IMG/VR virus record: IMGVR_UViG_2703718841_000007 | DNA: 13,197 bases | Reading direction: 5' to 3' (one strand) | Source of the DNA: a virus | Lineage: Duplodnaviria; Heunggongvirae; Uroviricota; Caudoviricetes | In this document: in pieces, positions 1 through 13,197 of the stretch | Position numbering within the stretch: the stretch's first letter is position 1 | Layout of the letters: every line of letters starts with the position of its first letter | Translations under genes and position numbers: made by a program | Notes under the pieces: model-generated | The model's database searches: none | The model's input: only the letters and a program-made list of their open reading frames with translations | Told to the model about the DNA's origin: nothing

Positions 1-25
1 TCCTTTATATTGAGTGTATCGCCAA

Positions 26-50
26 CGCGCCTTCGGGCGCGTTTTATTTA
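26..50 (+). terminator. Intrinsic-terminator-like hairpin with T-rich tail
   Basis: Read directly: stem CGCGCC (26-31) / GGCGCG (36-41), TTCG loop (32-35), then TTTTATTTA (42-50). Would end a plus-strand transcript entering from the left. Confidence 0.5.
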
Positions 51-120
51 CCTGTAGCACATTGAAATAAAAGGATTTATCTCAACAAACGTCCACATAG
101 TGACCACATCGACAATACAA

Positions 121-143
121 ACCCCGTTTCGACGGGGTTTCTT
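121..143 (+). terminator. GC hairpin (ACCCCGT-TTCG-ACGGGGT) followed by TTCTT; possible second terminator or attenuator
   Basis: Read directly: 7-bp stem 121-127 / 132-138, TTCG tetraloop, weak T tail. It ends 5 nt before the first in-frame ATG of the next ORF, which argues against 144 as the true start. Confidence 0.35.
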
Positions 144-1331
144 ATGCGTGTCAATAAGTCCACAGAGCATTCCCGACATCCGCAAAAAATGTTAACATCC
201 ATAAAAACACCAAGCGTAATTATTATAATGAAATATATTTTTGAATACGGACTTTATCTCAGCATACTTATAGCGACAATATATGTCACTTCTAAGTTAT
301 TGGGTATTACACCTGCAAAACATAAATACGCCTCGCTTGATGGCTTACGTGGAATTTGTGCAGCAATGGTTGCTGTATTCCATCTTTACTGGAGAGCCGG
401 AGGAGAATCAGATATATACTGGTCTCTTGAGTACATTACACTCAGCAATGTAAAACGCGCCATATATCTAACAGGAGAGTTATCTGTTGGGGTCTTTTTT
501 ATGCTGTCTGCTTTTTTATTTTTCAAAAAGGCACTAGCGGACTCCTTCGATGTAAAAAGCTTTGCAATTTCACGATTCATGCGAATTTACCCACCTGTAG
601 TTGTTCTTTTATTTATAATATATATTGCAACATTTATCATGAATCCGGATAACCATACTCCAGTATCGCAATGGTTTATATCTTCATTACCATTTATATT
701 CAATCCGCCTGGCGCTAACATCAATGGTGTATCGCTCCAGATTGCCACATCTGGTGTGTTCTGGACGTTAGTCTGGGAATTACGCCTATACCTTGCAATT
801 CCATTTTTATATCTGATAATGAAAAACATCAAATATAAAGAAGCATTTGTTATTTTTTTAATGGGATGTGTTTTATTATTCAAGTATTTTATAAACAATG
901 AACAACACCTGAGTTATATAATGTATTTCCTTGCAGGATTTCTTGTCGCTACAATCAAGAGCAACAAGCGCCCATCAGATATAATCTGCGCTTTATTATT
1001 ATTCGCAGCCATATATTTTACTCGACATGCTTACAACACTACAACTCCGCTTTATATGTTTATTGTTTTCTACACAATAAAGTGCGGATGTGATTACTTT
1101 GGCTTACTTACATCCCTGCCTGTAACTATGCTGGGAACCTGCAGTTTCTCCCTTTATTTAGTTCATGGGATAACTCAAACAGTATCTAAACATTATTTAT
1201 ATAGTGCAGGAAACTATGTTTGGCAGATTTGTGCAATTATTGCGGCAGGTATCATTGCGCCGGTTATGTACAAATATGTCGAAAGTCGCAGCATCATACA
1301 TAAGCGTCCTCAACTTCAGATTGCAAAGTAG
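144..1331 (+). CDS. Integral membrane acyltransferase, acyltransferase-3 family (OafA/Oac-like O-acetyltransferase type)
   Basis: Long ORF that is highly hydrophobic throughout. Family-typical N-terminal motif YASLDGLRGICAAMVAVFHL and FFMLSAFLFF segment. Strongly AT-rich (one 60-nt line, 601-660, hand-counted at 15 G+C). True start is uncertain: ATGs at 144, 189 and 228, none with a good Shine-Dalgarno. Confidence 0.75.
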   Translation: MRVNKSTEHSRHPQKMLTSIKTPSVIIIMKYIFEYGLYLSILIATIYVTSKLLGITPAKHKYASLDGLRGICAAMVAVFHLYWRAGGESDIYWSLEYITLSNVKRAIYLTGELSVGVFFMLSAFLFFKKALADSFDVKSFAISRFMRIYPPVVVLLFIIYIATFIMNPDNHTPVSQWFISSLPFIFNPPGANINGVSLQIATSGVFWTLVWELRLYLAIPFLYLIMKNIKYKEAFVIFLMGCVLLFKYFINNEQHLSYIMYFLAGFLVATIKSNKRPSDIICALLLFAAIYFTRHAYNTTTPLYMFIVFYTIKCGCDYFGLLTSLPVTMLGTCSFSLYLVHGITQTVSKHYLYSAGNYVWQICAIIAAGIIAPVMYKYVESRSIIHKRPQLQIAK

Positions 1332-1338
1332 AACATTT

Positions 1339-1358
1339 GCGCCCCTGAACAGGGGCGC
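1339..1358 (+). terminator. Stable GC hairpin 8 nt after the acyltransferase stop, no T-tract
   Basis: Read directly: GCGCCCCT (1339-1346) / AGGGGCGC (1351-1358), loop GAAC. There is no U-run on either strand, so it may be an RNA-stabilising hairpin rather than a terminator. Confidence 0.3.
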
Positions 1359-1425
1359 TATCCCACCACGCTGTTAAAATTTTGTTTCGTCTTACTTAGC
1401 ATTTTTAAGTTGCCCATCGGAAAAA

Positions 1426-1695
1426 CGTCACAACCATCACGCCCCACAAAAAAAACCATTAACCATCTGATTATCATGAATAAATGTTGTGATGGTAAAA
1501 CCATCACAAAACGTAACGTAAACCGTCACACCCTATAAATTCAGCGAGTTATAAAACAGAGTTGTGATGTTTTAAGGCCGTCACACTGTGATGCTCTTGT
1601 GATGCTCTTGTGATGGTTTTCAATATATGAATTTACTTATACATATCATATAGATAAATGATATTTTTTAAATCTGTGATGTTTGTGACGGTTTT
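1426..1695. repeat. Iteron-like array: at least 12 copies of TGTGATG(G)/TGTGACG(G) in both orientations, with a near-perfect 25-bp palindrome and an AT-rich tract
   Basis: Read directly. CGTCACA 1426-1432 and ACCATCAC 1433-1440; palindrome GTTGTGATGG-TAAAA-CCATCACAA 1486-1510; CGTCACA 1524-1530; GTTGTGATG 1561-1569; tandem TGTGATGCTCT x2 (1587-1608) then TGTGATGGTTTT (1609-1620); TGTGATG 1675-1681 and TGTGACGG 1684-1691. AT-rich tract 1621-1672. No ORF of 60 aa or more. Confidence 0.6.
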
Positions 1696-1943
1696 CCGAT
1701 GCTCCCCCTAAATTTTTGAAAAAATTAGAAGTGGTCAGAAATCACCCTGATTTGTTGGTGGTTTTGTATATATCTCTGTTAGTGATTTGAGCATTGGTGC
1801 AGTACGTTAATGTAGGTACTGCCCCAGCCCGGTGTCCCGCTGTGCCGGGATGAACGCGATCTCGTCCATCTGGCTGTCAAATCCCTGCATTGCCCGTCTG
1901 GGCATGTTCGCAATGAGAAAATCGGTTAATGCCGTTAACTGGC

Positions 1944-2396
1944 TCATATCATGGCCACCGTAATGCGTTTCAGCCCTTTGATGCGGCGTACTGCCAGTGT
2001 GGACTCTGCAATCAGGCTGGAGCGGGTTTCGTCACTTTCCTGCCCCGGATGGCTCTCACGGCGACCAACAGACGCAAATTCGCCCATCAAATCAGCTTTG
2101 GCACGTGCATATACCGCTTTGCGATAACGGGCGCACAACAGATTTTCGCCGTCAATTTCCACGCCCGAAACGTCCGCCGCGCGCTCATGGCCAGCATTGC
2201 GATACCTTGCCGCCACACTGACCAGATCATCATTGATTTCGCCGGCTGCAGTCAGCAGTGCCTGGCGGATGGTGGCCGCATCAATATCGGCCGGAATGGT
2301 GCGCTGGGACTGAAAATCTTTCACGCTCAGGTCAGGCCAGAAGCCATCATTCGTCAGAGTGGCATCGTCAAAATCAATTGAAGTTCCGCTGAACAT
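1944..2396 (-). CDS. P2 gpL-like head completion/stabilisation protein
   Basis: ORF resembles the gpL family (FWPDLS region, central acidic region, Y-rich C-terminal part) and lies downstream of the M-like gene as in P2. The track ORF starts at GTG 2435; the ATG at 2396 has a GGAG Shine-Dalgarno 7 nt upstream and is preferred. Confidence 0.6.
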   Translation of the reverse strand: MFSGTSIDFDDATLTNDGFWPDLSVKDFQSQRTIPADIDAATIRQALLTAAGEINDDLVSVAARYRNAGHERAADVSGVEIDGENLLCARYRKAVYARAKADLMGEFASVGRRESHPGQESDETRSSLIAESTLAVRRIKGLKRITVAMI

Positions 2397-2489
2397 CCTG
2401 TTTCTCCGGAAAAAAGCGGGCTGGCCGGTTTCCACGGGCGATACGCTTATGCGATCCCCTCCACCGCGCCCGCTTTCGGGTCGGTAGTC

Positions 2490-2681
2490 TTACTCGCCGC
2501 GTTTTGCGGCCTGAATCTCACCTTCTTCAAACCACGCATCAGATGCGCGGCCGTCAGCAGTCTGATAGTGGATCAGATACTGATTGCAGCTGTTGGTGTA
2601 CTCCGCACGGGCTTTGATATGCCCCTCTTCGCCGCTAATGGAAACTTCAACAACCTGGCCTAACTCATGCTTAAACGACAT
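2490..2681 (-). CDS. Hypothetical small protein (63 aa) between the M-like and L-like genes
   Basis: ATG start at 2681 with a GGGAG Shine-Dalgarno 6-7 nt upstream; the start lies 1 nt after the M-like stop (tight coupling). No family recognised. Confidence 0.5.
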   Translation of the reverse strand: MSFKHELGQVVEVSISGEEGHIKARAEYTNSCNQYLIHYQTADGRASDAWFEEGEIQAAKRGE

Positions 2682-2682
2682 A

Positions 2683-3396
2683 TCAAACTCCCGTAGACTC
2701 TTTTTTCAGCGCCCGCAGACGCGCAGCAATACGCTGCAACATCGTGCCAACACCACATTTAGGGTCGAATCCCTTCGCCTGCTCCAGCAGTTCCTTAGCC
2801 CGGAGCAATACTTCCCTGTCTTCCGTTGCCGCTGCGCGTGGCTCTCCGTTTTCATCGCGTAGCAGGTGCAGACCGGCAAACTTCAGGTATTTGGCCTTAA
2901 TGACCTCATACACATTCCAGTGCTGCGTCACGTTTTCCAGCGTACGGCCAAAATACGGCTCCACATCATGCCCCTGTACGGCTTCCGCTTCCGCCCAGGA
3001 CAACACCGTATCCGCCACAAACACCGGGAACGTACTGCCGAACGCGGCCGGGGTTTCCTGCCCCCGCTGGATTGCCATATCCGCCCAGTCCAGCGCCTGG
3101 TCAAACTGGCCTGTATCAAACAGCCAGACGACACACCAGGCAAAAACAGGATTCTGTTGCACACTGTCACCTTCCAGCCAGGATTGCGCGGTTGGCATCC
3201 AGCGCGGTAACAGCACATCACGCTTAAATTCCATTCGCTCAGCGCGGCTTTCAATCGCTGCAGCTGCGGCGACATCTTTCTCCAGCGCGACAATCTGAAT
3301 ATGCAGGCTGGTTTCCGTGTCCAGAGACTGCTGCTGTCGCAGTAACCGCTCCGCTTCAATTCGTGCGCTGTGGCGCTGTGCCGGTGACAGTTGCAT
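2683..3396 (-). CDS. P2 gpM-like terminase small (endonuclease/DNA-recognition) subunit
   Basis: N-terminus MQLSPAQRH..., LLPRWMP and WLFDTGQFDQALDWADMAIQRG segments match my recollection of the gpM family. ATG at 3396 with a strong AGGGGGA Shine-Dalgarno; starts 10 nt after the O-like stop. Confidence 0.7.
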   Translation of the reverse strand: MQLSPAQRHSARIEAERLLRQQQSLDTETSLHIQIVALEKDVAAAAAIESRAERMEFKRDVLLPRWMPTAQSWLEGDSVQQNPVFAWCVVWLFDTGQFDQALDWADMAIQRGQETPAAFGSTFPVFVADTVLSWAEAEAVQGHDVEPYFGRTLENVTQHWNVYEVIKAKYLKFAGLHLLRDENGEPRAAATEDREVLLRAKELLEQAKGFDPKCGVGTMLQRIAARLRALKKESTGV

Positions 3397-3406
3397 TAAA
3401 TCCCCC

Positions 3407-4108
3407 TTACTCGCCTGCCGGAGGCGCGACAGGTGCCCCGATAGCTACCGCTTCTTCCGCCTCACCCAGACGGGTTTCAATAGCAGATACGCGCTTATCA
3501 ATGGCATCCAGCGCTTCAGCCAGCGCCTGTAAGGCATCAGACTGTGAAGGTTCCTGCTCCGGGGTCTGCTCCGGTTCTTCGATACTGAAAAAATGGCGCC
3601 AGCCCTTTTTCGCTGTCTTTGACATTCCCTTTTCCTTTTTAAATTCCCTGACTTCATCAAACGCCAGCGGCTTGTATGGTCCGATGCGTTTTCCCCTGGT
3701 GCGGCTGAAACGTAACCGTGTGGTGCTTACCCCGGCCGGACTGTCAGTAATGGCCAGTCCCTCAAGATAGGTTTTCCCGGTATTTCTGAAATTGCCGTCC
3801 GGTGTAAACTCCGGTGATAAAAATAAAAGCTGACCGTCTGCATTTGCCTGTAGCAATGAAATCGCCGGACAGAGGCGGGCATATAAACGAAGAATACCTT
3901 CATCATCCCGCTCGGCTTTTACTTCCAGCACCTCCCCCATATTCCCGAAATTACGGGAATGTTCCGGCCATAACAGCGCGGTATACAAAGAGGGGTCATA
4001 TAATTCAGCGGCATCAAGCAACCATTGTTCTTCAATAAATCGCTTATCAACCGTTTCACCCGCAGTGGCGATACAAATCCAGTTTGTTGCCAGTTGTGAA
4101 CCTGACAT
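3407..4108 (-). CDS. P2 gpO-like capsid scaffolding protein/protease
   Basis: GKTYLEGLAITDSPAGVSTTRL and a C-terminal coiled-coil-like region (EALDAIDKRVSAIETRLGEAEE) resemble the gpO family. The track ORF starts at GTG 4168, but the ATG at 4108 has a perfect GGAGG 5 nt upstream and is preferred. Shorter than my recollection of P2 gpO (about 284 aa). Confidence 0.7.
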   Translation of the reverse strand: MSGSQLATNWICIATAGETVDKRFIEEQWLLDAAELYDPSLYTALLWPEHSRNFGNMGEVLEVKAERDDEGILRLYARLCPAISLLQANADGQLLFLSPEFTPDGNFRNTGKTYLEGLAITDSPAGVSTTRLRFSRTRGKRIGPYKPLAFDEVREFKKEKGMSKTAKKGWRHFFSIEEPEQTPEQEPSQSDALQALAEALDAIDKRVSAIETRLGEAEEAVAIGAPVAPPAGE

Positions 4109-4251: not shown

Positions 4252-5496
4252 ATGGCTAAATATTCAGAAGAATTAAAAGGCGTTGCGCGGGCGCTTTATT
4301 TAAAACGCTATACCCCGCAGGAAATTGCCAGCGAACTTAATCTGCCTAACAGACGCATTGTCTATTACTGGGCGGAGAAATATTGCTGGGCGGAATTACT
4401 CAGTCATGAATCCACCGAAGATGCATTAAACCGTCGCATTCAGTCACTGACATTACGTGAAGGGAAATCGGAGCTGGAGCTGCGGGAGCTGGACAGTCTC
4501 GTTTCTCACCTGGTGAAACTACGTGCACAGCACAATAAGCATCAGGAAAAGCTGGCAGAAATTAAACACAGTGAAAATGATGCGCCGGCGCGTCAGTCCG
4601 GTGGCGACGAAAAGCCCCGGAAACGTGGCAAGTACAAAAAGAACGACATCAGCGGACTGACACAGGAAGATTTTGACCGGTTCGCGCTGGAGCACCTTTT
4701 CGGTTACCAGAAACACCTTCGCGCTAATCTTCATCAGCAAATCAGGAACATCCTGAAAAGCCGCCAGATTGGTGCAACCTGGTATTTCTCAATAGAAGCC
4801 TTTGAGAATGCGGTCATGACAGGCGATCCGCAAATCTTCCTGTCCGCATCAAAGGCTCAGGCGGAAGTATTCCGCAGCTATATCGTCAACATTGCGGAGC
4901 AGTATTTCGGCGTGGAGCTGACGGGAAACCCCATCCGCCTCTCCAACGGCGCGGAGATGCGATTCCTGTCCACCAACAAGAACACCGCCCAGTCATACAG
5001 CGGCCATCTGTACTGCGATGAATATTTCTGGGTACCCAACTTTGCAAAATTAAACGAAGTGGCCAGCGCGATGGCCACACACGACAAATGGCGAACCACC
5101 TACTTTTCCACCCCCAGCAGCAAAACGCACCAGGCGTACCCGTTCTGGACTGGTGAAGAATGGAAGCGCGGTGACAAAAAACGCGCGCGCGTACAATTTC
5201 CCACGGAGAAGGAGCTGCGCGACGGTGGACGGTTATGTCCTGATGGGCAGTGGCGCTACATCATCACAATGGAAGACGCGATCGCAGGCGGGTTTAATCT
5301 CGCCAGCATCGGGAAGCTGCGCAACCGCTACAACCGCGACACTTTCAACATGCTGTATATGTGCGTGTTCGTGGACAGCAAGGACAGCGTATTTTCGTTC
5401 TCTCACGTAGAACGCTGCTGTGTAGATCCGGATATGACAATGAAGCGGAACACTGGACGCTCCCGATTGACCGGCTGGCGCTGGCGCAACTGGTGA
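4252..5496 (+). CDS. P2 gpP-like terminase large (ATPase) subunit, C-terminally truncated; probable pseudogene
   Basis: N-terminal HTH-like region, then KSRQIGATWYF (Walker A-like), FLSAS, DEYFWVP (Walker B-like) and YFSTPSS...PFWTGE typical of the gpP family. Family resemblance stops near 5427 (...HVERCCVD) and the ORF ends after a 23-aa unrelated tail. It has about 415 aa against about 590 in P2 gpP (recalled), so the C-terminal nuclease domain is absent. The GTG at 4237 is an alternative start. Confidence 0.65.
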   Translation: MAKYSEELKGVARALYLKRYTPQEIASELNLPNRRIVYYWAEKYCWAELLSHESTEDALNRRIQSLTLREGKSELELRELDSLVSHLVKLRAQHNKHQEKLAEIKHSENDAPARQSGGDEKPRKRGKYKKNDISGLTQEDFDRFALEHLFGYQKHLRANLHQQIRNILKSRQIGATWYFSIEAFENAVMTGDPQIFLSASKAQAEVFRSYIVNIAEQYFGVELTGNPIRLSNGAEMRFLSTNKNTAQSYSGHLYCDEYFWVPNFAKLNEVASAMATHDKWRTTYFSTPSSKTHQAYPFWTGEEWKRGDKKRARVQFPTEKELRDGGRLCPDGQWRYIITMEDAIAGGFNLASIGKLRNRYNRDTFNMLYMCVFVDSKDSVFSFSHVERCCVDPDMTMKRNTGRSRLTGWRWRNW

Positions 5497-6800: not shown

Positions 6801-7520
6801 ATGTTAATAGTCTCAGTTCTTAAATGTAGTAAAGAGTTTACCCCTAAACACGCCCAATGGCTTCATCGTCAGTTCAAAGATATTCCATCTATATGTTTAA
6901 CCGATGCAGATAATATTCCTGGAGTTAACACAACCCCTTTGCTTTATAACTGGCCGGGATGGTGGTCTAAAATTGAACTATTTAATCCTAATCACCCAGT
7001 CCTTGGAGACCAAGATTTACTCTATTTTGACGTAGATGTTGTGGTCACGGGAGATATTCATATTTTCGAAGGTGCGAAGAAATTTACAATGCTTCGGGAG
7101 TTTAACCATGCCTCAAGAGTAAACTCATCAATAATGATGATTCCGGCGTCGATTAAAAAGACGATTTGGGAACAATTCATTATTGATCCTGAGAAAATTA
7201 TGCGCAATTGTCAGACTGAAGACAAATGGGGTGATCAGGGATTTCTCGGTAGCATCATAAAACCAGCCCTATGGCAGGATATCATTCCTGGCTCAATTGT
7301 TAGTTATAAATGTGACATCGCCACCCCCTCGATGATTGGCTTCAATGCAAATTTAGCCTCTGAGGCTGCGACAGGGAAAGTCCCTGATAATGTGGCGGTT
7401 GTTTGCTTTCATGGCAGTCCACGCCCCTGGCGTACTGGTTTTGATTGGGTTCCTTCGTTTTCCCTGCGGGATACTCTGTACGGTAAATTAAAGAACTTTA
7501 AAATAAGAATGAAGCAATAA
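6801..7520 (+). CDS. GT-A-fold glycosyltransferase-like protein (GT8-like DxD and H-x-G-x-x-[KR]-P-W motifs); accessory/cargo gene
   Basis: LYFDVDVVV (DxD, about residue 75) and CFHGSPRPW (about residue 212) match the two signature motifs of retaining GT8-type transferases (LgtC/WaaJ type), with similar inter-motif spacing. Strong Shine-Dalgarno. AT-rich relative to neighbours (60-nt lines hand-counted: 6841-6900 has 24 G+C, 7141-7200 has 21 G+C). Convergent with the primase gene. Confidence 0.5.
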   Translation: MLIVSVLKCSKEFTPKHAQWLHRQFKDIPSICLTDADNIPGVNTTPLLYNWPGWWSKIELFNPNHPVLGDQDLLYFDVDVVVTGDIHIFEGAKKFTMLREFNHASRVNSSIMMIPASIKKTIWEQFIIDPEKIMRNCQTEDKWGDQGFLGSIIKPALWQDIIPGSIVSYKCDIATPSMIGFNANLASEAATGKVPDNVAVVCFHGSPRPWRTGFDWVPSFSLRDTLYGKLKNFKIRMKQ

Positions 7521-7588: not shown

Positions 7589-10246
7589 TTACTTTTCCCG
7601 GCCAAATATCCAGCAGCGGAATGTTTCCGGCATCCGTTGCATATCCCCTTTACCACGATTATGGCGCTCACTTACCGCGCTGCGCGTGGTGCTTTGTCTG
7701 ATAAACCGGCGCTCATTGCCGTTTTTAAGCAGCTTTTTAATTTCCGTTAACGTGAACGGAATACGCTGCCGGTGTGCTGCGGCGACCTCTTCCATGTGAT
7801 TGAAATTAACCGCGATTTCATTTTCATCTGATGAATGATTGATGCCATAAGGTGCCAGTTCATCCAAGTAATCAAACAGCTCCCAGAACTCCTGCACCAG
7901 AGGATGATCCTTTTTAAGTGCCTGACAACGTTCAACGGCCAGCGCGGTGATGGCTTCACGCGTTTTTTCTATACGTTCAACCGGCACCGGTACAACAAGT
8001 GCAAGCGCCTCCAGCAAGCCCACAAGCTGCGCGTGATTCTTTGCAATACGGATATGGCGAATACTGCTATTAGACTCCAGCTCATTCCTAGCTCGCTCGT
8101 ACCCCCTGCCGAACGTCTGCATGATTTCTTTTTCGCGCATGGTGGCCAGTAATGTGAATCCGGATACCTGGCTAACGGGGAGTTGTTCAAGTCGTTCTGC
8201 AGCGTGGCGCGTCTGAATGGACTGGCCGCGCTTGTCGGTATAGATGTGGATGATACGCTCCAGAAACGCCTTGCTGCCGTCTGTGTCGGCATTTTGCGCT
8301 ATCACAATACTTCCCCTGAACGGCGGCTCATACGTCTCGTTATTGTTCGATTTGATACCCACGGCGCGGGAGGCACGACCGTTATACAGTGATTTCAGCT
8401 CGTCCCAGTCAAAAGCGCGTTGCTTGGCGTTATCGGTAGTACGGTCGCCCTCAATCAGCACAACCGGCAGATTACCGACCTGGGCGAAGTTACGGCCACG
8501 CGCGGCGGCGGTAGATTTAGATGGGTCAAACCCTTCGTATTCCTCACGGCCGGCGAGCTTCCAGAGAAATTCTATCAGCGTGGATTTACCTGTCCCCGGC
8601 TCGCCCACGATTTCCAGAAACGGAAATGACTTGTCACGCTCGCGGATTTGTTCGGCAAACAGCGACCCCAGCCAGAACGCCAGAGCCACATACCCTTTTT
8701 CACCAAATGCCGTCCAGATATCGTCTACCCAACCCGTAGTAAACTCGTTCAGCTTCGGATTCAGATCCAGCGCCGGCGTGAGGCTCAGGCTCTTAACACT
8801 GGCACTGTTGATTTCGAAGTAATCCTCGTCGTTCATCTCATACAGCCGGCCATCGCAAACGGCCACGCGGTTAAACAACCAGGCGGCATAATCCTTGTTA
8901 TAGCCGATGAAATTCTGCGTCTTTACCTCTTTGATTTCAGGGAGGCGCATCTGGATGAACTTATCCAGCTGTTTGGTGCTGCCTGTGTACACCGCCCCTT
9001 TGGCGATGTGCAGCAGACGCTTTTTGAACTCGGCGGAGCTGGTGAGCTGATTAGCCGTGAAAGTATCTTTCACGGCTGGCCGGTTAGGCATACTGACTTT
9101 CACGTAATACCAGGACTCGTCCGTAGGTTCAGACCGCTGAAAGTAAAGCGGCGTCAGCCAGCAGTTAGCTATTTCGGTCACGCCGCCTGACTCTTTAACC
9201 GCCCGTTCTTTGGCCTCCCACTCCATCACCACTTCGGTACCGGTATTGGTGATGCGCTCATAGGCTCGCATATACCTGTCCAGATCCAGCTCAAACCAGT
9301 ACATGCGGGAGTTATGCTCAAAGTAGAACGAGTGCCACTCGTTATGCTGATGCATGAGCAGCGCTTTCTCAGTCGGGCTTTTTGCCAGAAGGAGATCGCC
9401 ATAGTAGCGATAATTTTTAATGTCCGACTTACTGAACCGGTTACGTAACAACAGGTCATTCCAGTCCAGCGATGCCGATGATTTCACCGGCTGCGCGGCA
9501 CGAGTTTTCCATCCTGCAGCATCACTACGGGCAGCGAACGCCAGTGTGTGCTTTGTGCCGGCTTTATCGCCGTCAAACGCCCATACAAGACGTGGACGTG
9601 GTTTTTCACCCAGTTCTTTGGCCAGCGTATCCAGTGCGGCCAGCGGATAGTTGTTACTGCTCAGTGTGGCAACTGCAGGTAACCCTGCCTGGCACAGACT
9701 CAGCGCGTTGAAGATTCCCTCAGTGATCCAGATTTCGTTCACTTCCTGCAGGTTGATAAAGGGAGGAACCCACCAGTGACCGACATAGCTTCCCCTGATG
9801 TTGGCTTTCTGCTTACCGAAGCGCTGCGGCTGGTCAATGATGCGCTCCCATGTTGCACCGCATGACAGCGAAAATCTGACCGTTGCCGACCCCATGCCAT
9901 CTTTCACGAATGCACCCTGGGTAAAACAGCCTTTTAATGGCTCAGTCTCCAGCCCTCTGGCCTCGCGCAGATACGCCTCAGCTACTGCATGGGGGTTATC
10001 TTCTGTGGTCTGGTAACGTTTTGACCAGTCTTCAAAGATATCCGGATACAGCTCTTTCACGACAATCTGATGTGCGCAGTTATTTTCACGGCCACATTTC
10101 AGAATCCAGGGCTTTTCTATGCTGGTAAATAATTCGCGCTTACGACAGGCAGGGCAAACGCCCTGCTGCAAATACTTATCCCGCTCTTTAAATTCAAAGT
10201 CCCGAACAAGACGGCGCACAACGTCCTGTTGTATCGTTTCGTTCAT
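7589..10246 (-). CDS. P4-alpha-type bifunctional DNA primase/helicase (zinc-binding plus TOPRIM primase, P-loop helicase, C-terminal domain)
   Basis: CPACRK...CGRENNC zinc motif; TOPRIM-like ITEGIFNALSL and WAFDGDKAG; Walker A IVGEPGTGKST. One 60-nt line (8461-8520) hand-counted at 38 G+C. The ORF is open from TTG 10282; the first ATG is 10246; neither has a good Shine-Dalgarno. This is not a P2 A-type rolling-circle initiator. Confidence 0.8.
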   Translation of the reverse strand: MNETIQQDVVRRLVRDFEFKERDKYLQQGVCPACRKRELFTSIEKPWILKCGRENNCAHQIVVKELYPDIFEDWSKRYQTTEDNPHAVAEAYLREARGLETEPLKGCFTQGAFVKDGMGSATVRFSLSCGATWERIIDQPQRFGKQKANIRGSYVGHWWVPPFINLQEVNEIWITEGIFNALSLCQAGLPAVATLSSNNYPLAALDTLAKELGEKPRPRLVWAFDGDKAGTKHTLAFAARSDAAGWKTRAAQPVKSSASLDWNDLLLRNRFSKSDIKNYRYYGDLLLAKSPTEKALLMHQHNEWHSFYFEHNSRMYWFELDLDRYMRAYERITNTGTEVVMEWEAKERAVKESGGVTEIANCWLTPLYFQRSEPTDESWYYVKVSMPNRPAVKDTFTANQLTSSAEFKKRLLHIAKGAVYTGSTKQLDKFIQMRLPEIKEVKTQNFIGYNKDYAAWLFNRVAVCDGRLYEMNDEDYFEINSASVKSLSLTPALDLNPKLNEFTTGWVDDIWTAFGEKGYVALAFWLGSLFAEQIRERDKSFPFLEIVGEPGTGKSTLIEFLWKLAGREEYEGFDPSKSTAAARGRNFAQVGNLPVVLIEGDRTTDNAKQRAFDWDELKSLYNGRASRAVGIKSNNNETYEPPFRGSIVIAQNADTDGSKAFLERIIHIYTDKRGQSIQTRHAAERLEQLPVSQVSGFTLLATMREKEIMQTFGRGYERARNELESNSSIRHIRIAKNHAQLVGLLEALALVVPVPVERIEKTREAITALAVERCQALKKDHPLVQEFWELFDYLDELAPYGINHSSDENEIAVNFNHMEEVAAAHRQRIPFTLTEIKKLLKNGNERRFIRQSTTRSAVSERHNRGKGDMQRMPETFRCWIFGREK

Positions 10247-10285
10247 AAATAATCCAGATGTGAAATAATGGGTAAAAGGCAAAAA

Positions 10286-10504
10286 CTATATTCTGTACTG
10301 CTTGTTATATCGCTCATGTGTCATTAGTTCCCAGCTTCTGCCCTTATCCTTACTCAGTAATCGCCAGCGATAAGAAACATAAACAGAGAAATAATGTTTT
10401 GGCTTAATAACCTGATATACCTTTTTGCCGTTGTAATATTCTGTCAGCACTGAAAATGCCTTGTGAATGACACTTTCACTTGCATGAGAGGTCACTGTAA
10501 GCAT
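10286..10504 (-). CDS. Hypothetical protein (72 aa), AT-rich
   Basis: ATG start 2 nt after the exonuclease stop; ends 3 nt before the primase ORF. No family recognised. Lys/Tyr/Arg-rich. Confidence 0.45.
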   Translation of the reverse strand: MLTVTSHASESVIHKAFSVLTEYYNGKKVYQVIKPKHYFSVYVSYRWRLLSKDKGRSWELMTHERYNKQYRI

Positions 10505-12137: not shown

Positions 12138-12203
12138 ACATCTGGTTTTTCTATGCGTTAGCGCAAAATTTACATAATGATTCATACATCGGAGGGCTTC
12201 GCT

Positions 12204-12464
12204 ATGTCGATTAAGAAGCTTGATGATGGTCGTTTTGAAGTGGACGTTAGACCGCGCGGAACCTCAGGAAGAAGGATTCGACGCAAATTTGACAGAAAGG
12301 CGGAAGCACAGGCATACGAGCGGTATGTACTGACAAACTTTCACGATAAAGAATGGCAGGATAAACCCGCAGACAGGAGGCTTGTATCCGAGTTAATTTC
12401 TTTATGGTGGAGCTACCATGGAAAGAATCACAACTATGGTGACTCATATAAAAAGCGTTTGGAA
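12204..12464 (+). pseudogene. int: Tyrosine integrase, N-terminal arm-binding domain fragment (frame 3), separated from the catalytic part by a +1 frameshift
   Basis: MSIKKLDDGRFEVDVRPRGTSGRRIRRKFDRKAEAQAYERY is a typical phage integrase N-terminal domain. GGAGGG Shine-Dalgarno 7 nt before the ATG at 12204. The reading frame switches inside the A7 run at 12463-12469. Confidence 0.65.
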
Positions 12465-13197
12465 AAAAATCAACCGAGAAATGGCGGAACCCAGAGTGTA
12501 CGAGCTTACCCGCAACTTTCTGATGAAATATCGTGCAGAACGACTTCATAGTGGAGTATCTGCTGGCACGGTAAACAGGGATTTCTGTTCCATGTCCAGC
12601 ATGTTCAGTTTGCTGATAGATATGGAAGAATTTCATCACGAAAACCCGTTTCGCGCCGTGAAGAAGTTACGTCTGGAAAACACAGAAATGTCATTTCTGT
12701 CCGAAGAAGAGATCCACCATTTGCTGAATGCCCTTACAGGGGATGATCGCAGAGTTGTCGTTCTTTGCCTGAATACAGGAGCACGATGGGGTGAAGCCAG
12801 TAATCTTAAAGCTGAAAACGTGATAAGTAACCGTGTGACCTTTGTTAAGACCAAAACCGGCCCAGCTCGTACTGTTCCGATATCGAAGGAAATCGCGGAC
12901 TACATCCTTACACGCAAATCGGGGAAATTGTTCGATACCAACTATGAGCGAGTTCGCGATGTTCTTCGTAAGATTAAGCCAGACTTGCCGAAAGGTCAGG
13001 CACTGCATGTTTTACGCCATACCTTCGCAACACATTTCATGATCAACGGCGGGAATATCATCACGCTACAGCGTATTTTGGGTCATACAACAATCGAGCA
13101 AACAATGACATATGCTCACTTCGCCCCAGATTATCTGACTGATGCCATACGATTTAACCCTATGCGTGGGAGTGTCCACATAATGTCCACCGACTAG
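12418..13197 (+). CDS. int: Tyrosine integrase, core-binding and catalytic domains (frame 1); C-terminal part of the frameshifted int
   Basis: Catalytic signatures TGARWGEA (box I Arg) and HVLRHTFATHFMINGGNIITLQRILGHTTIEQTMTYAHF (H-x-x-R and Tyr region). The stop codon is the last three bases of the window. The ORF's own ATG at 12418 is internal to the gene. Confidence 0.85.
   Translation: MERITTMVTHIKSVWKKINREMAEPRVYELTRNFLMKYRAERLHSGVSAGTVNRDFCSMSSMFSLLIDMEEFHHENPFRAVKKLRLENTEMSFLSEEEIHHLLNALTGDDRRVVVLCLNTGARWGEASNLKAENVISNRVTFVKTKTGPARTVPISKEIADYILTRKSGKLFDTNYERVRDVLRKIKPDLPKGQALHVLRHTFATHFMINGGNIITLQRILGHTTIEQTMTYAHFAPDYLTDAIRFNPMRGSVHIMSTD

Follow-up and report, generated by a model that had tools for sequence, protein, structure and literature searches.

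The locus described here raises the question of whether an acyltransferase gene found at the edge of a prophage belongs to the phage or to the flanking host DNA, and what its product might do. The gene, a member of the acyltransferase-3 (AT3) family, lies within positions 1–1360 of a 13,197-nt stretch of Caudoviricetes DNA (IMG/VR record IMGVR_UViG_2703718841_000007; hereafter the window, by which we mean the whole stretch), and a sequence-only reading had proposed it as possible surface-modification cargo. Our comparisons place the gene inside the mobile element, a P2-like prophage of Escherichia coli, immediately beyond the P′ arm of the phage attachment site attP. We interpret it as lysogenic-conversion cargo (a 'moron') of a P2-like, Evevirus-type temperate phage, and with good confidence we read its product as a phage-borne AT3 enzyme that acylates a glycan of the cell envelope; this confidence attaches to an envelope glycan and not to O-antigen specifically.

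The window corresponds to the E. coli raiA–pheL locus occupied by a decayed P2-like (Peduoviridae, Evevirus-type) prophage, and its positions 1–1900 are 100 % identical to two complete E. coli chromosomes. In strain PSJ-12, the raiA stop codon lies directly before the window start (window position 1 is L001 20001; L numbers are our handles for the locus sequences compared), while pheL and then pheA lie past the window end, which coincides with the stop codon of a frameshifted phage integrase. In the empty site of K-12, raiA adjoins pheL. The boundary of the element is marked by the following features:

1–23, + strand: host DNA, the raiA 3′ untranslated region right after the stop codon, identical to K-12 (L004 997–1019).
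24–45, + strand: raiA-side attachment (att) core AACGCGCCTTCGGGCGCGTTTT, a 22-nt direct repeat with a stem (24–31/36–43) and a UUCG loop.
91–108, + strand: predicted P′ arm-type direct repeats GTCCACA and GACCACA, 11 nt apart, in reverse complement to the arm consensus.
13174–13191, + strand: predicted P arm-type direct repeats GTCCACA and GTCCACC, 11 nt apart and contained in the 3′-terminal portion of the frameshifted integrase gene (int).

The 22-nt repeat, AACGC(G/A)CCTTCGGGCGCGTTTT, is present at window 24–45 and again, with one mismatch, past int and just before pheL (L001 32327–32348); the empty K-12 site holds a single copy. Divergence from K-12 sets in exactly past the repeat on the raiA side and exactly ahead of it on the pheL side, and by this alignment phage DNA begins at base 46. 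The repeats at 91–108 (P′) and 13174–13191 (P) are likely the arm-type binding sites of a P2-type integrase, for which the published arm-site consensus is tgTGGaCa (PMC3448106). Taken together, the P2-type genes, the duplicated core and the arm repeats on both sides identify the element, at the level of sequence, as a P2-like (Peduoviridae) prophage with a P2-type integrase. The AT3 gene is located between the att repeat and the tail genes, with its longest open reading frame (ORF) 99 nt from the att core (183 nt from the start codon at 228), and since the att repeat and the arm repeats separate raiA from the gene, it lies inside the element. The earlier reading had stated that this placement could not be told from the window, correctly so, as the second att copy lies outside it, and had suggested a comparison with the empty locus, which against K-12 resolves the matter.

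The distribution of the gene follows that of the phage. A blastn survey of 5,426 complete E. coli genomes, sensitive to ~65–70 % identity, returned the AT3 gene in 22, in each case as a full-length ORF at 100 % coverage and at least 99.8 % DNA identity. The integrase region (at least 99 % identity) was present in exactly the same 22 genomes and the other 5,404 lacked the AT3 gene, so that the arrangement named beforehand as counter-evidence, the gene standing at the same position in strains without the element, was found in none of them. In the deposited complete genome of phage ESSI2_ev239 (NC_049392; Peduoviridae, Evevirus), int (25751–26734), the attP region and the AT3 gene (27190–28293) follow one another, and convergent tail genes come next across the ends of the linear record. 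The product, gp35 (annotated 'O-acetyltransferase'), is the same protein (96.5 % amino acid identity), and DNA identity is 95 % over window 184–1789, inclusive of an iteron-like array described below. This phage possesses a different integrase and att core with the same kind of arm repeats and hairpin, and its similarity to the window at the DNA level begins at 184, in the stretch that separates attP from the AT3 gene; the AT3 cassette thus goes with the tail side of the genome and is joined to different integration modules.

Further afield, Citrobacter amalonaticus has an 80 % homologue at one end of a similar prophage, which occupies another chromosomal site (a copper-ATPase gene is adjacent); GTCCACA repeats and a hairpin precede the homologue here too. 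Repeats of the 91–108 type occur between att region and AT3 gene in ev239 and in this prophage as well. Homologues of 52 % identity in Enterobacter hormaechei reside in unrelated prophages, convergent with beta-helix tailspike genes. Kosakonia and Salmonella are also among the sources of homologues by name, the prophage context being confirmed for Citrobacter and Enterobacter. Among IMG/VR viral contigs of at least 20 kb, the homologue lies no more than 3 kb from a contig end in 33/58 (10 expected at random).

The slot itself appears to accept various cargo. Related, Evevirus-like prophages adjacent to mntR lack the AT3 gene; what they carry at that place, similarly oriented, is either a gene resembling a hexapeptide-repeat 'serine acetyltransferase' (Pfam Hexapep slightly short of threshold) or zinc-ribbon and DUF6338 genes (L097 3704–4477; L098 3252–3956; L099 2382–3864). 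Judged by these predicted products, the AT3 slot is a variable cargo position that two unrelated acetyltransferase folds occupy in related phages.

The choice of attachment site has a consequence for the host RNA. Window 1–23 falls within the RaiZ small RNA as annotated in K-12, and the att core comprises the raiA intrinsic terminator and the 3′ end of annotated RaiZ. Integration into this common terminator rebuilds the stem-loop exactly (window 24–50; K-12 L004 1020–1050) and changes the 3′ U-tract from UUUUUUGUU to UUUUAUUUA as RNA (the T-tract from TTTTTTGTT to TTTTATTTA as DNA). Small-RNA chaperones read the 3′ U-tract end of small RNAs, and integration could alter RaiZ termination or stability. 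We found no literature on raiA–pheL as a phage integration site.

The predicted AT3 protein is a convincing member of its family, as the sequence-only reading had held. It matches Pfam Acyl_transf_3 (PF01757: E value 5.9e-29, 101.6 bits against a cut-off of 31, profile positions 2–322 of 326) and PHROG 3333 'O-acetyltransferase' (2e-40); no informative NCBIfam equivalog was returned. The architecture is AT3-only, with 367 aa, one Pfam domain, an end ~15 residues past the last helix and no SGNH domain. Residues invariant across 32 homologues include R41, H52 (R41-X10-H52), F90, F91, R116, R119, W179 and E184. The R/K-X10-H (R14/H25 in OafA), FFxxSG and RxxR motifs define functional AT3 enzymes (PMC7448272). 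The first is present as R41/H52 (367-aa numbering), aligned with R47/H58 of the Shigella flexneri phage enzyme OacB, and the last as R116-F-M-R119 in the cytoplasmic loop past the third helix, aligned with OacB R116/R119. An AlphaFold2 model built with a homologue alignment (pLDDT 91.8, pTM 0.90) predicts an N-terminal helix and ~10 further membrane-length helices, which answers the call for a topology check with a predicted total of ~11. Comparison of the model with the PDB returned no AT3 structure, the best Foldseek hit being a weak one to human HGSNAT (E value 0.1), and a PDB-sequence profile search gave 0 hits. The ratio of nonsynonymous to synonymous substitution rates (dN/dS) is 0.20 against ev239, 0.05 against the Citrobacter homologue and 0.04 against a 77 %-identical IMG/VR homologue, values that identify long-term purifying selection on the encoded protein. 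Intact catalytic motifs (with the exception of the FFxxSG glycine, discussed below), purifying selection, the int–attP–AT3 order of ev239 and the tailspike-linked homologues together lend support to the idea of surface-modification cargo.

The gene and the signals around it can be listed as follows:

119–140, + strand: hairpin 2, 9 bp with a UUCG loop, then UUUCUU (−13.2 kcal/mol, z score −2.8, RNA folding).
190–198, + strand: candidate extended −10 element TGtTAACAT, kept as TGnTAAyAT in the window, ev239 and the Citrobacter homologue.
228–1331, + strand: predicted gene for a membrane O-acyltransferase of the AT3-only type, with 367 aa if read from the conserved start; longest ORF from 144.
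1339–1358, + strand: hairpin 3, 8 bp, G+C-rich, 8 nt past the stop codon (−17.1 kcal/mol, z score −3.5, RNA folding).

The longest ORF in 1–1360 is 144–1331 (+ strand; open, 395 aa), and the true start codon is most likely 228, judging by the alignment of homologues. A start at 144 is less likely on three counts: homologues (366–377 aa, beginning MKYI..) have their first codon where the window has 228, in ev239 the shared ATG comes shortly after a stop codon, and the conserved −10-like element, which stands ~30 nt upstream of that ATG in three divergent phages, would fall within the supposed N-terminal extension. The description of the gene as the most AT-rich coding segment holds: at 36.4 % G+C (33 % at third codon positions), against 47.5 % for the window and 51–57 % for phage structural genes, it has a lower value than any other coding segment, the next being two small ORFs at 38.4 % and 38.8 %. 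The sampled 60-nt line with 15 G+C is that at 601; lines 841 (12) and 181 (14) are lower, and the lowest of all, at 1621 (10 G+C), is non-coding.

The same reading had the gene insulated by two upstream hairpins and one downstream, and this needs qualification. All three fold stably, hairpin 1 (24–43) at −14.4 kcal/mol (z score −2.4, RNA folding), and positions 1–2000 hold 6 terminator-like sites against 1.2 expected, but hairpin 1 is the raiA/RaiZ terminator and att core rather than a feature of the gene. Insulation fits hairpin 2, at whose place hairpins of other sequence stand in ev239 (−15.2 kcal/mol) and Citrobacter (−18.9 kcal/mol); it is a terminator-like element that insulates the AT3 gene from the att region, and most likely stops transcription that would arrive from int when the phage is free or from raiA when it is integrated. 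Hairpin 3 has a T-tract on neither strand and may stabilise the messenger RNA or, where the convergent AT3 and tail transcripts meet, act as a weak stop. The Citrobacter homologue has an apparent stem ~40 nt past its stop codon (seen by eye, not folded). An Rfam scan of the whole window (E value ≤0.1) gave no match, hairpins and repeat array included.

These elements suggest how the cargo would work. In the circular phage the order is int, attP, terminator hairpin, AT3 gene and convergent tail-fibre operon, and as integration takes place in the raiA/RaiZ terminator, the AT3 gene ends up immediately downstream of raiA and as far from int as the prophage extends; the two hairpins that separate it from raiA are the rebuilt raiA terminator and a hairpin of the phage's own. 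Transcription probably starts from a promoter that belongs to the gene itself, with the extended −10 at 190–198, and translation probably begins at 228. By analogy with its family, the enzyme would be loaded on the cytoplasmic side with an acyl group, most likely an acetyl donated by acetyl-CoA, and would pass it through the membrane domain by way of R41-X10-H52 and R116-x-x-R119; with no SGNH domain present, final transfer would be direct or involve another partner. A sugar of an envelope glycan would then be O-acylated on the periplasmic side, with a resulting change in antigenicity and in the properties of the surface as a phage receptor. In this scheme we infer that the gene is expressed in the lysogen, that the transferred group is acetyl and what the acceptor is. 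Neither the AT3 protein nor the 239-aa protein described next belongs to a known defence family according to PADLOC.

A second putative cargo gene is relevant to the choice of acceptor:

6801–7520, + strand: gene for a soluble 239-aa protein with a predicted fold of the glycosyltransferase family 8 (GT8)-like, GT-A type (PHROG 1962 'glycosyltransferase', 6e-81).

It is positioned between an Ogr/Delta-like gene and the primase gene, and its family, of over 600 proteins, shares an invariant DxD motif (D77, D79). No Pfam match was obtained even at an E value of 10. The GT8-like assignment made earlier nonetheless stands at the level of the fold: the AlphaFold2 model has a pLDDT of 96, and its top Foldseek hits in the PDB are LgtC, glycogenin and other GT8 proteins (E value 2.5e-8). 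E. coli transferases of the lipopolysaccharide (LPS) core are GT8 enzymes as well. Phage ev239 does not carry this gene and has others at that position.

As for the acceptor, we regard O-antigen as about an even bet, by analogy with Oac, OacB and the tailspike-linked homologues; otherwise it would be LPS core, enterobacterial common antigen (ECA) or another glycan. O-antigen would be available, since the hosts carry complete Wzx/Wzy O-antigen clusters. Strain NT1F10, in which the prophage is apparently intact, has an O5-family cluster and PSJ-12 an O105-family cluster; the wzy allele and prophage coordinates of NT1F10 are common to strains named ST761 in PMC9396132. NT1F10, of the ST761 type, also harbours a P22-like prophage adjoining sbcB (L093 19155–50000). 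P22-like phages normally use O-antigen as receptor.

Several observations weigh against the interpretation of the gene as active conversion cargo, and against O-antigen as its target in particular. A consensus promoter scan found no + strand site upstream of the AT3 gene and did not flag 190–198. Silencing is common for foreign genes rich in AT. P2-like phages adsorb to LPS core via tail fibres and not to O-antigen via tailspikes, and the self-exclusion logic of Sf6 and P22 is for this reason not directly transferable. No link between the AT3 gene and O-serogroup emerged among the carriers and the O5- and O105-family genomes: the identical AT3 allele occurs with O5-family wzy in 11 of the 22 carriers, with O105-family wzy in two and with neither in nine, while the gene is missing from 24/35 O5-family and 9/11 O105-family genomes. 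An enzyme strictly specific for one O-unit would have nothing to act on in some of these hosts. The glycine of FFxISG is missing: the motif reads FFMLSA here, with alanine throughout the E. coli/Citrobacter subclade, and the residue is invariant among 31 characterised enzymes and, as G53, critical in Oac, though the equivalent G46A change is tolerated in OafA (PMC7448272). Distant AT3 homologues keep the glycine, and both phenylalanines are invariant; the alanine is a motif deviation and no reason for exclusion from the AT3 family. Finally, our literature search found nothing on ev239, the AT3 gene or its clade. The O-type diversity may mean that the O-antigen cluster was exchanged after the phage arrived, or that the enzyme acts on a glycan common to the hosts, such as LPS core or ECA.

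The latter option, a special case of the envelope-glycan interpretation, has the enzyme acting on a glycan of all E. coli (LPS core, ECA or periplasmic glucans), perhaps together with the GT8-like protein, and we consider it possible but rather doubtful. It deserves some weight because this phage encodes tail fibres of the P2 type (collar domain, fibre-assembly chaperone) and no tailspike, and because the second cargo gene has a fold like that of LgtC; an identical allele in hosts of at least three wzy classes points the same way. Enzymes of this kind are also familiar, OpgC acting on periplasmic glucans and Lot3 and the OafA of Haemophilus influenzae on the core of lipooligosaccharide. The AT3-only WecH acts on ECA (PMC9558356). 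Set against this are the O-antigen specificity of OacB, the closest characterised relative found (27 % identity), and the adjacency of the 52 % homologues to beta-helix tailspikes, which points to O-antigen or capsule. Moreover, ev239 has the AT3 gene without the GT8-like gene, so the two modules are independent, and O-antigen cluster exchange in the host lineage could explain the O-type diversity with the original target unchanged. A more specific version, in which the enzyme acetylates the shared glycan, most plausibly the LPS-core receptor and otherwise ECA, and the phage thereby protects its lysogen, strikes us as unlikely; such editing of the core receptor would possibly be carried out jointly with the GT8-like cargo. 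We know of no lysogenic conversion by core-receptor editing described for Peduoviridae in E. coli.

Two explanations would deny the gene a role in conversion altogether. It might be a mere passenger, silent or without effect and kept by its protected terminal position, as its AT-rich sequence (36 % G+C), the promoter scan and the small number of carriers (22/5,426, nine of them named ST761, a tight clone; PMC9396132) could suggest. Decay does not speak against this: 10/22 prophages are decayed in ~7 distinct patterns, all of which spare the AT3 gene, but for a terminal 1.1-kb gene this is near chance expectation (roughly 0.5, an estimate), and we did not use retention as a sign of selection. 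The passenger hypothesis is nevertheless quite unlikely given the protein-level constraint (dN/dS 0.04–0.2 across lineages), the intact catalytic motifs other than the FFxxSG glycine, the extended −10 and insulating hairpin kept in three divergent phages, and the full-length ORF at no less than 99.8 % DNA identity in 22/22 genomes. An origin in the host flank, or in a separate small island abutting the prophage, was suggested by a base composition far from that of the phage structural genes and by a boundary that is invisible in the window, where only one att copy lies. We rejected it and give it practically no probability: the att repeat stands between raiA and the gene where K-12 joins raiA directly to pheL, P2-type arm repeats stand between core and gene, the deposited ev239 genome has the gene beside int, and the coincidence with the integrase is perfect (22/22) with 5,404 other genomes lacking the gene.

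An envelope-glycan acyltransferase carried by the phage thus remains the interpretation that we prefer, and the rest of the prophage provides its setting. An apparently intact version of ~29–30 kb exists in strains such as NT1F10. The window retains head and packaging genes (gpL, gpM, a truncated gpO scaffold, and a truncated terminase and portal), regulation and recombination genes (Ogr/Delta, Cox, a helix-turn-helix repressor and int) and replication genes (a P4-alpha-like primase and a 3′–5′ exonuclease); Pfam families were matched for gpM, gpO, terminase, portal and Ogr/Delta, while the Cox-family gene and integrase follow RefSeq annotation. Compared with the intact prophage, it has lost 13.9 kb of tail and lysis genes (at 1818), the capsid gene and 0.7 kb at the terminase/portal junction. 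The integrase is read in two overlapping frames (12177–12551 and 12418–13197), and RefSeq records it as frameshifted in the identical PSJ-12 sequence. Given the split integrase and the loss of capsid, tail and lysis genes, this copy is immobile. Two further features lie downstream of the AT3 gene:

1404–1712, no strand assigned: iteron-like array in which TGTGAYGNT occurs 10 times, both ways round; a 37-nt inverted repeat (1404–1440/1676–1712) frames it.
1815–1818, no strand assigned: deletion junction; window 1–1818 aligns with L003 20001–21829 and window 1815–3451 with L003 35724–37360.

Ten of the 11 TGTGAYGNT matches in the window fall within 1424–1692, where 0.89 are expected for the whole window. 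The array belongs to the phage and includes the most AT-rich 60-nt line of the window; its repeats are reminiscent of iterons and may represent an origin or cis-replication region, perhaps for the P4-alpha-like primase. At this position the Citrobacter phage has an apparently different, TTTGCAAAA-like repeat (by eye).

The left deletion endpoint, just after ...GTTAATGTAGGTA, is common to window-type and YPE10 prophages (window 1815–1818; L002 21818; L003 21829). The two types have different large deletions and right-hand partners, but they also share the junction at 5433–5435; neither prophage is obtainable from the other by simple deletion, and other decayed copies have other endpoints. The primase/helicase ORF (7589–10282, 897 aa) is intact in the window, whereas the otherwise identical PSJ-12 prophage lacks 952 bp (window 9087–10038), and the window therefore derives from a different, slightly less decayed isolate. 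The RefSeq label of a 72-aa ORF at 10286–10504 (− strand) varies between genomes, being either 'ParE family toxin-like protein' or 'hypothetical'; its sole match here is PHROG 1525 (unknown function), with none among the PADLOC models.

Work on Shigella and Salmonella has shown that O-acetyltransferases borne by phages alter serotype, vaccine epitopes and susceptibility to phages, and the hosts of this P2-like phage include, among others, the pig-associated, tigecycline-resistant ST761 clone. Identification of the acceptor would be of consequence for O-typing and when therapeutic phages are selected. The genomic pattern of this uncharacterised clade is a textbook one and by itself opens no new question.

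That pattern is best appreciated alongside the known systems. The closest characterised relative found is OacB of S. flexneri phage Sf101 (BLASTP: 27 % identity over 307 residues, E value 1e-20). Both proteins are AT3-only, and the extra N-terminal helix and ~10 further helices predicted by our model agree with the 11 membrane segments, an extra N-terminal helix and a 10-helix core, reported for OacB (PMC8952252); six of seven experimentally critical OacB residues (R47, H58, W71, F98, R116 and R119) are identical here (PMC8952252, PMC7448272); the seventh, S146, aligns with a proline in a poorly conserved, poorly aligned loop. Sf101, a proven serotype converter, also shares the order of int, attP, oacB and a convergent tailspike gene, but it is a P22-like podovirus with an O-antigen tailspike, whereas the phage here is a P2-like myovirus with tail fibres, and the substrate of OacB is defined (Rha III 3/4-O, GlcNAc 6-O) while the acceptor here is predicted. 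Oac (OacA) of Sf6 is likewise phage-encoded and AT3-only with RxxR and FFxxSG-type motifs, and acetylation by Oac gives superinfection immunity; its gene maps beside the integrase gene (Clark et al. 1991, cited in PMC9558356). It differs in its critical G53, which is alanine here, and in lacking the extra N-terminal helix predicted here, and a tblastn search of the AT3 protein against Sf6 gave no match at an E value ≤1e-5.

The Salmonella enzymes OafA and OafB share the AT3 domain and the essential R/K-X10-H and RxxR motifs (PMC7448272). They add an 11th helix and a periplasmic SGNH domain that carries out the final transfer, whereas the protein here ends after the AT3 domain. WecH (YiaH) is AT3-only, comes from the same host species and acts on ECA irrespective of O-type (PMC9558356), but is a chromosomal core gene and not phage-borne; the DNA survey matched the AT3 gene in the 22 carriers only and did not detect wecH as a DNA-level relative. 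Nearest of all is gp35 of ev239, the same gene at the same position relative to the tail genes, whose function is known by annotation alone. Like genes of the Oac/OacB type, the AT3 gene is part of the genome of a temperate phage, where attP and int are its immediate neighbours, both in ev239 and in the window, and it combines membership of the AT3 family with the genomic signature of phage serotype-conversion acetyltransferases.

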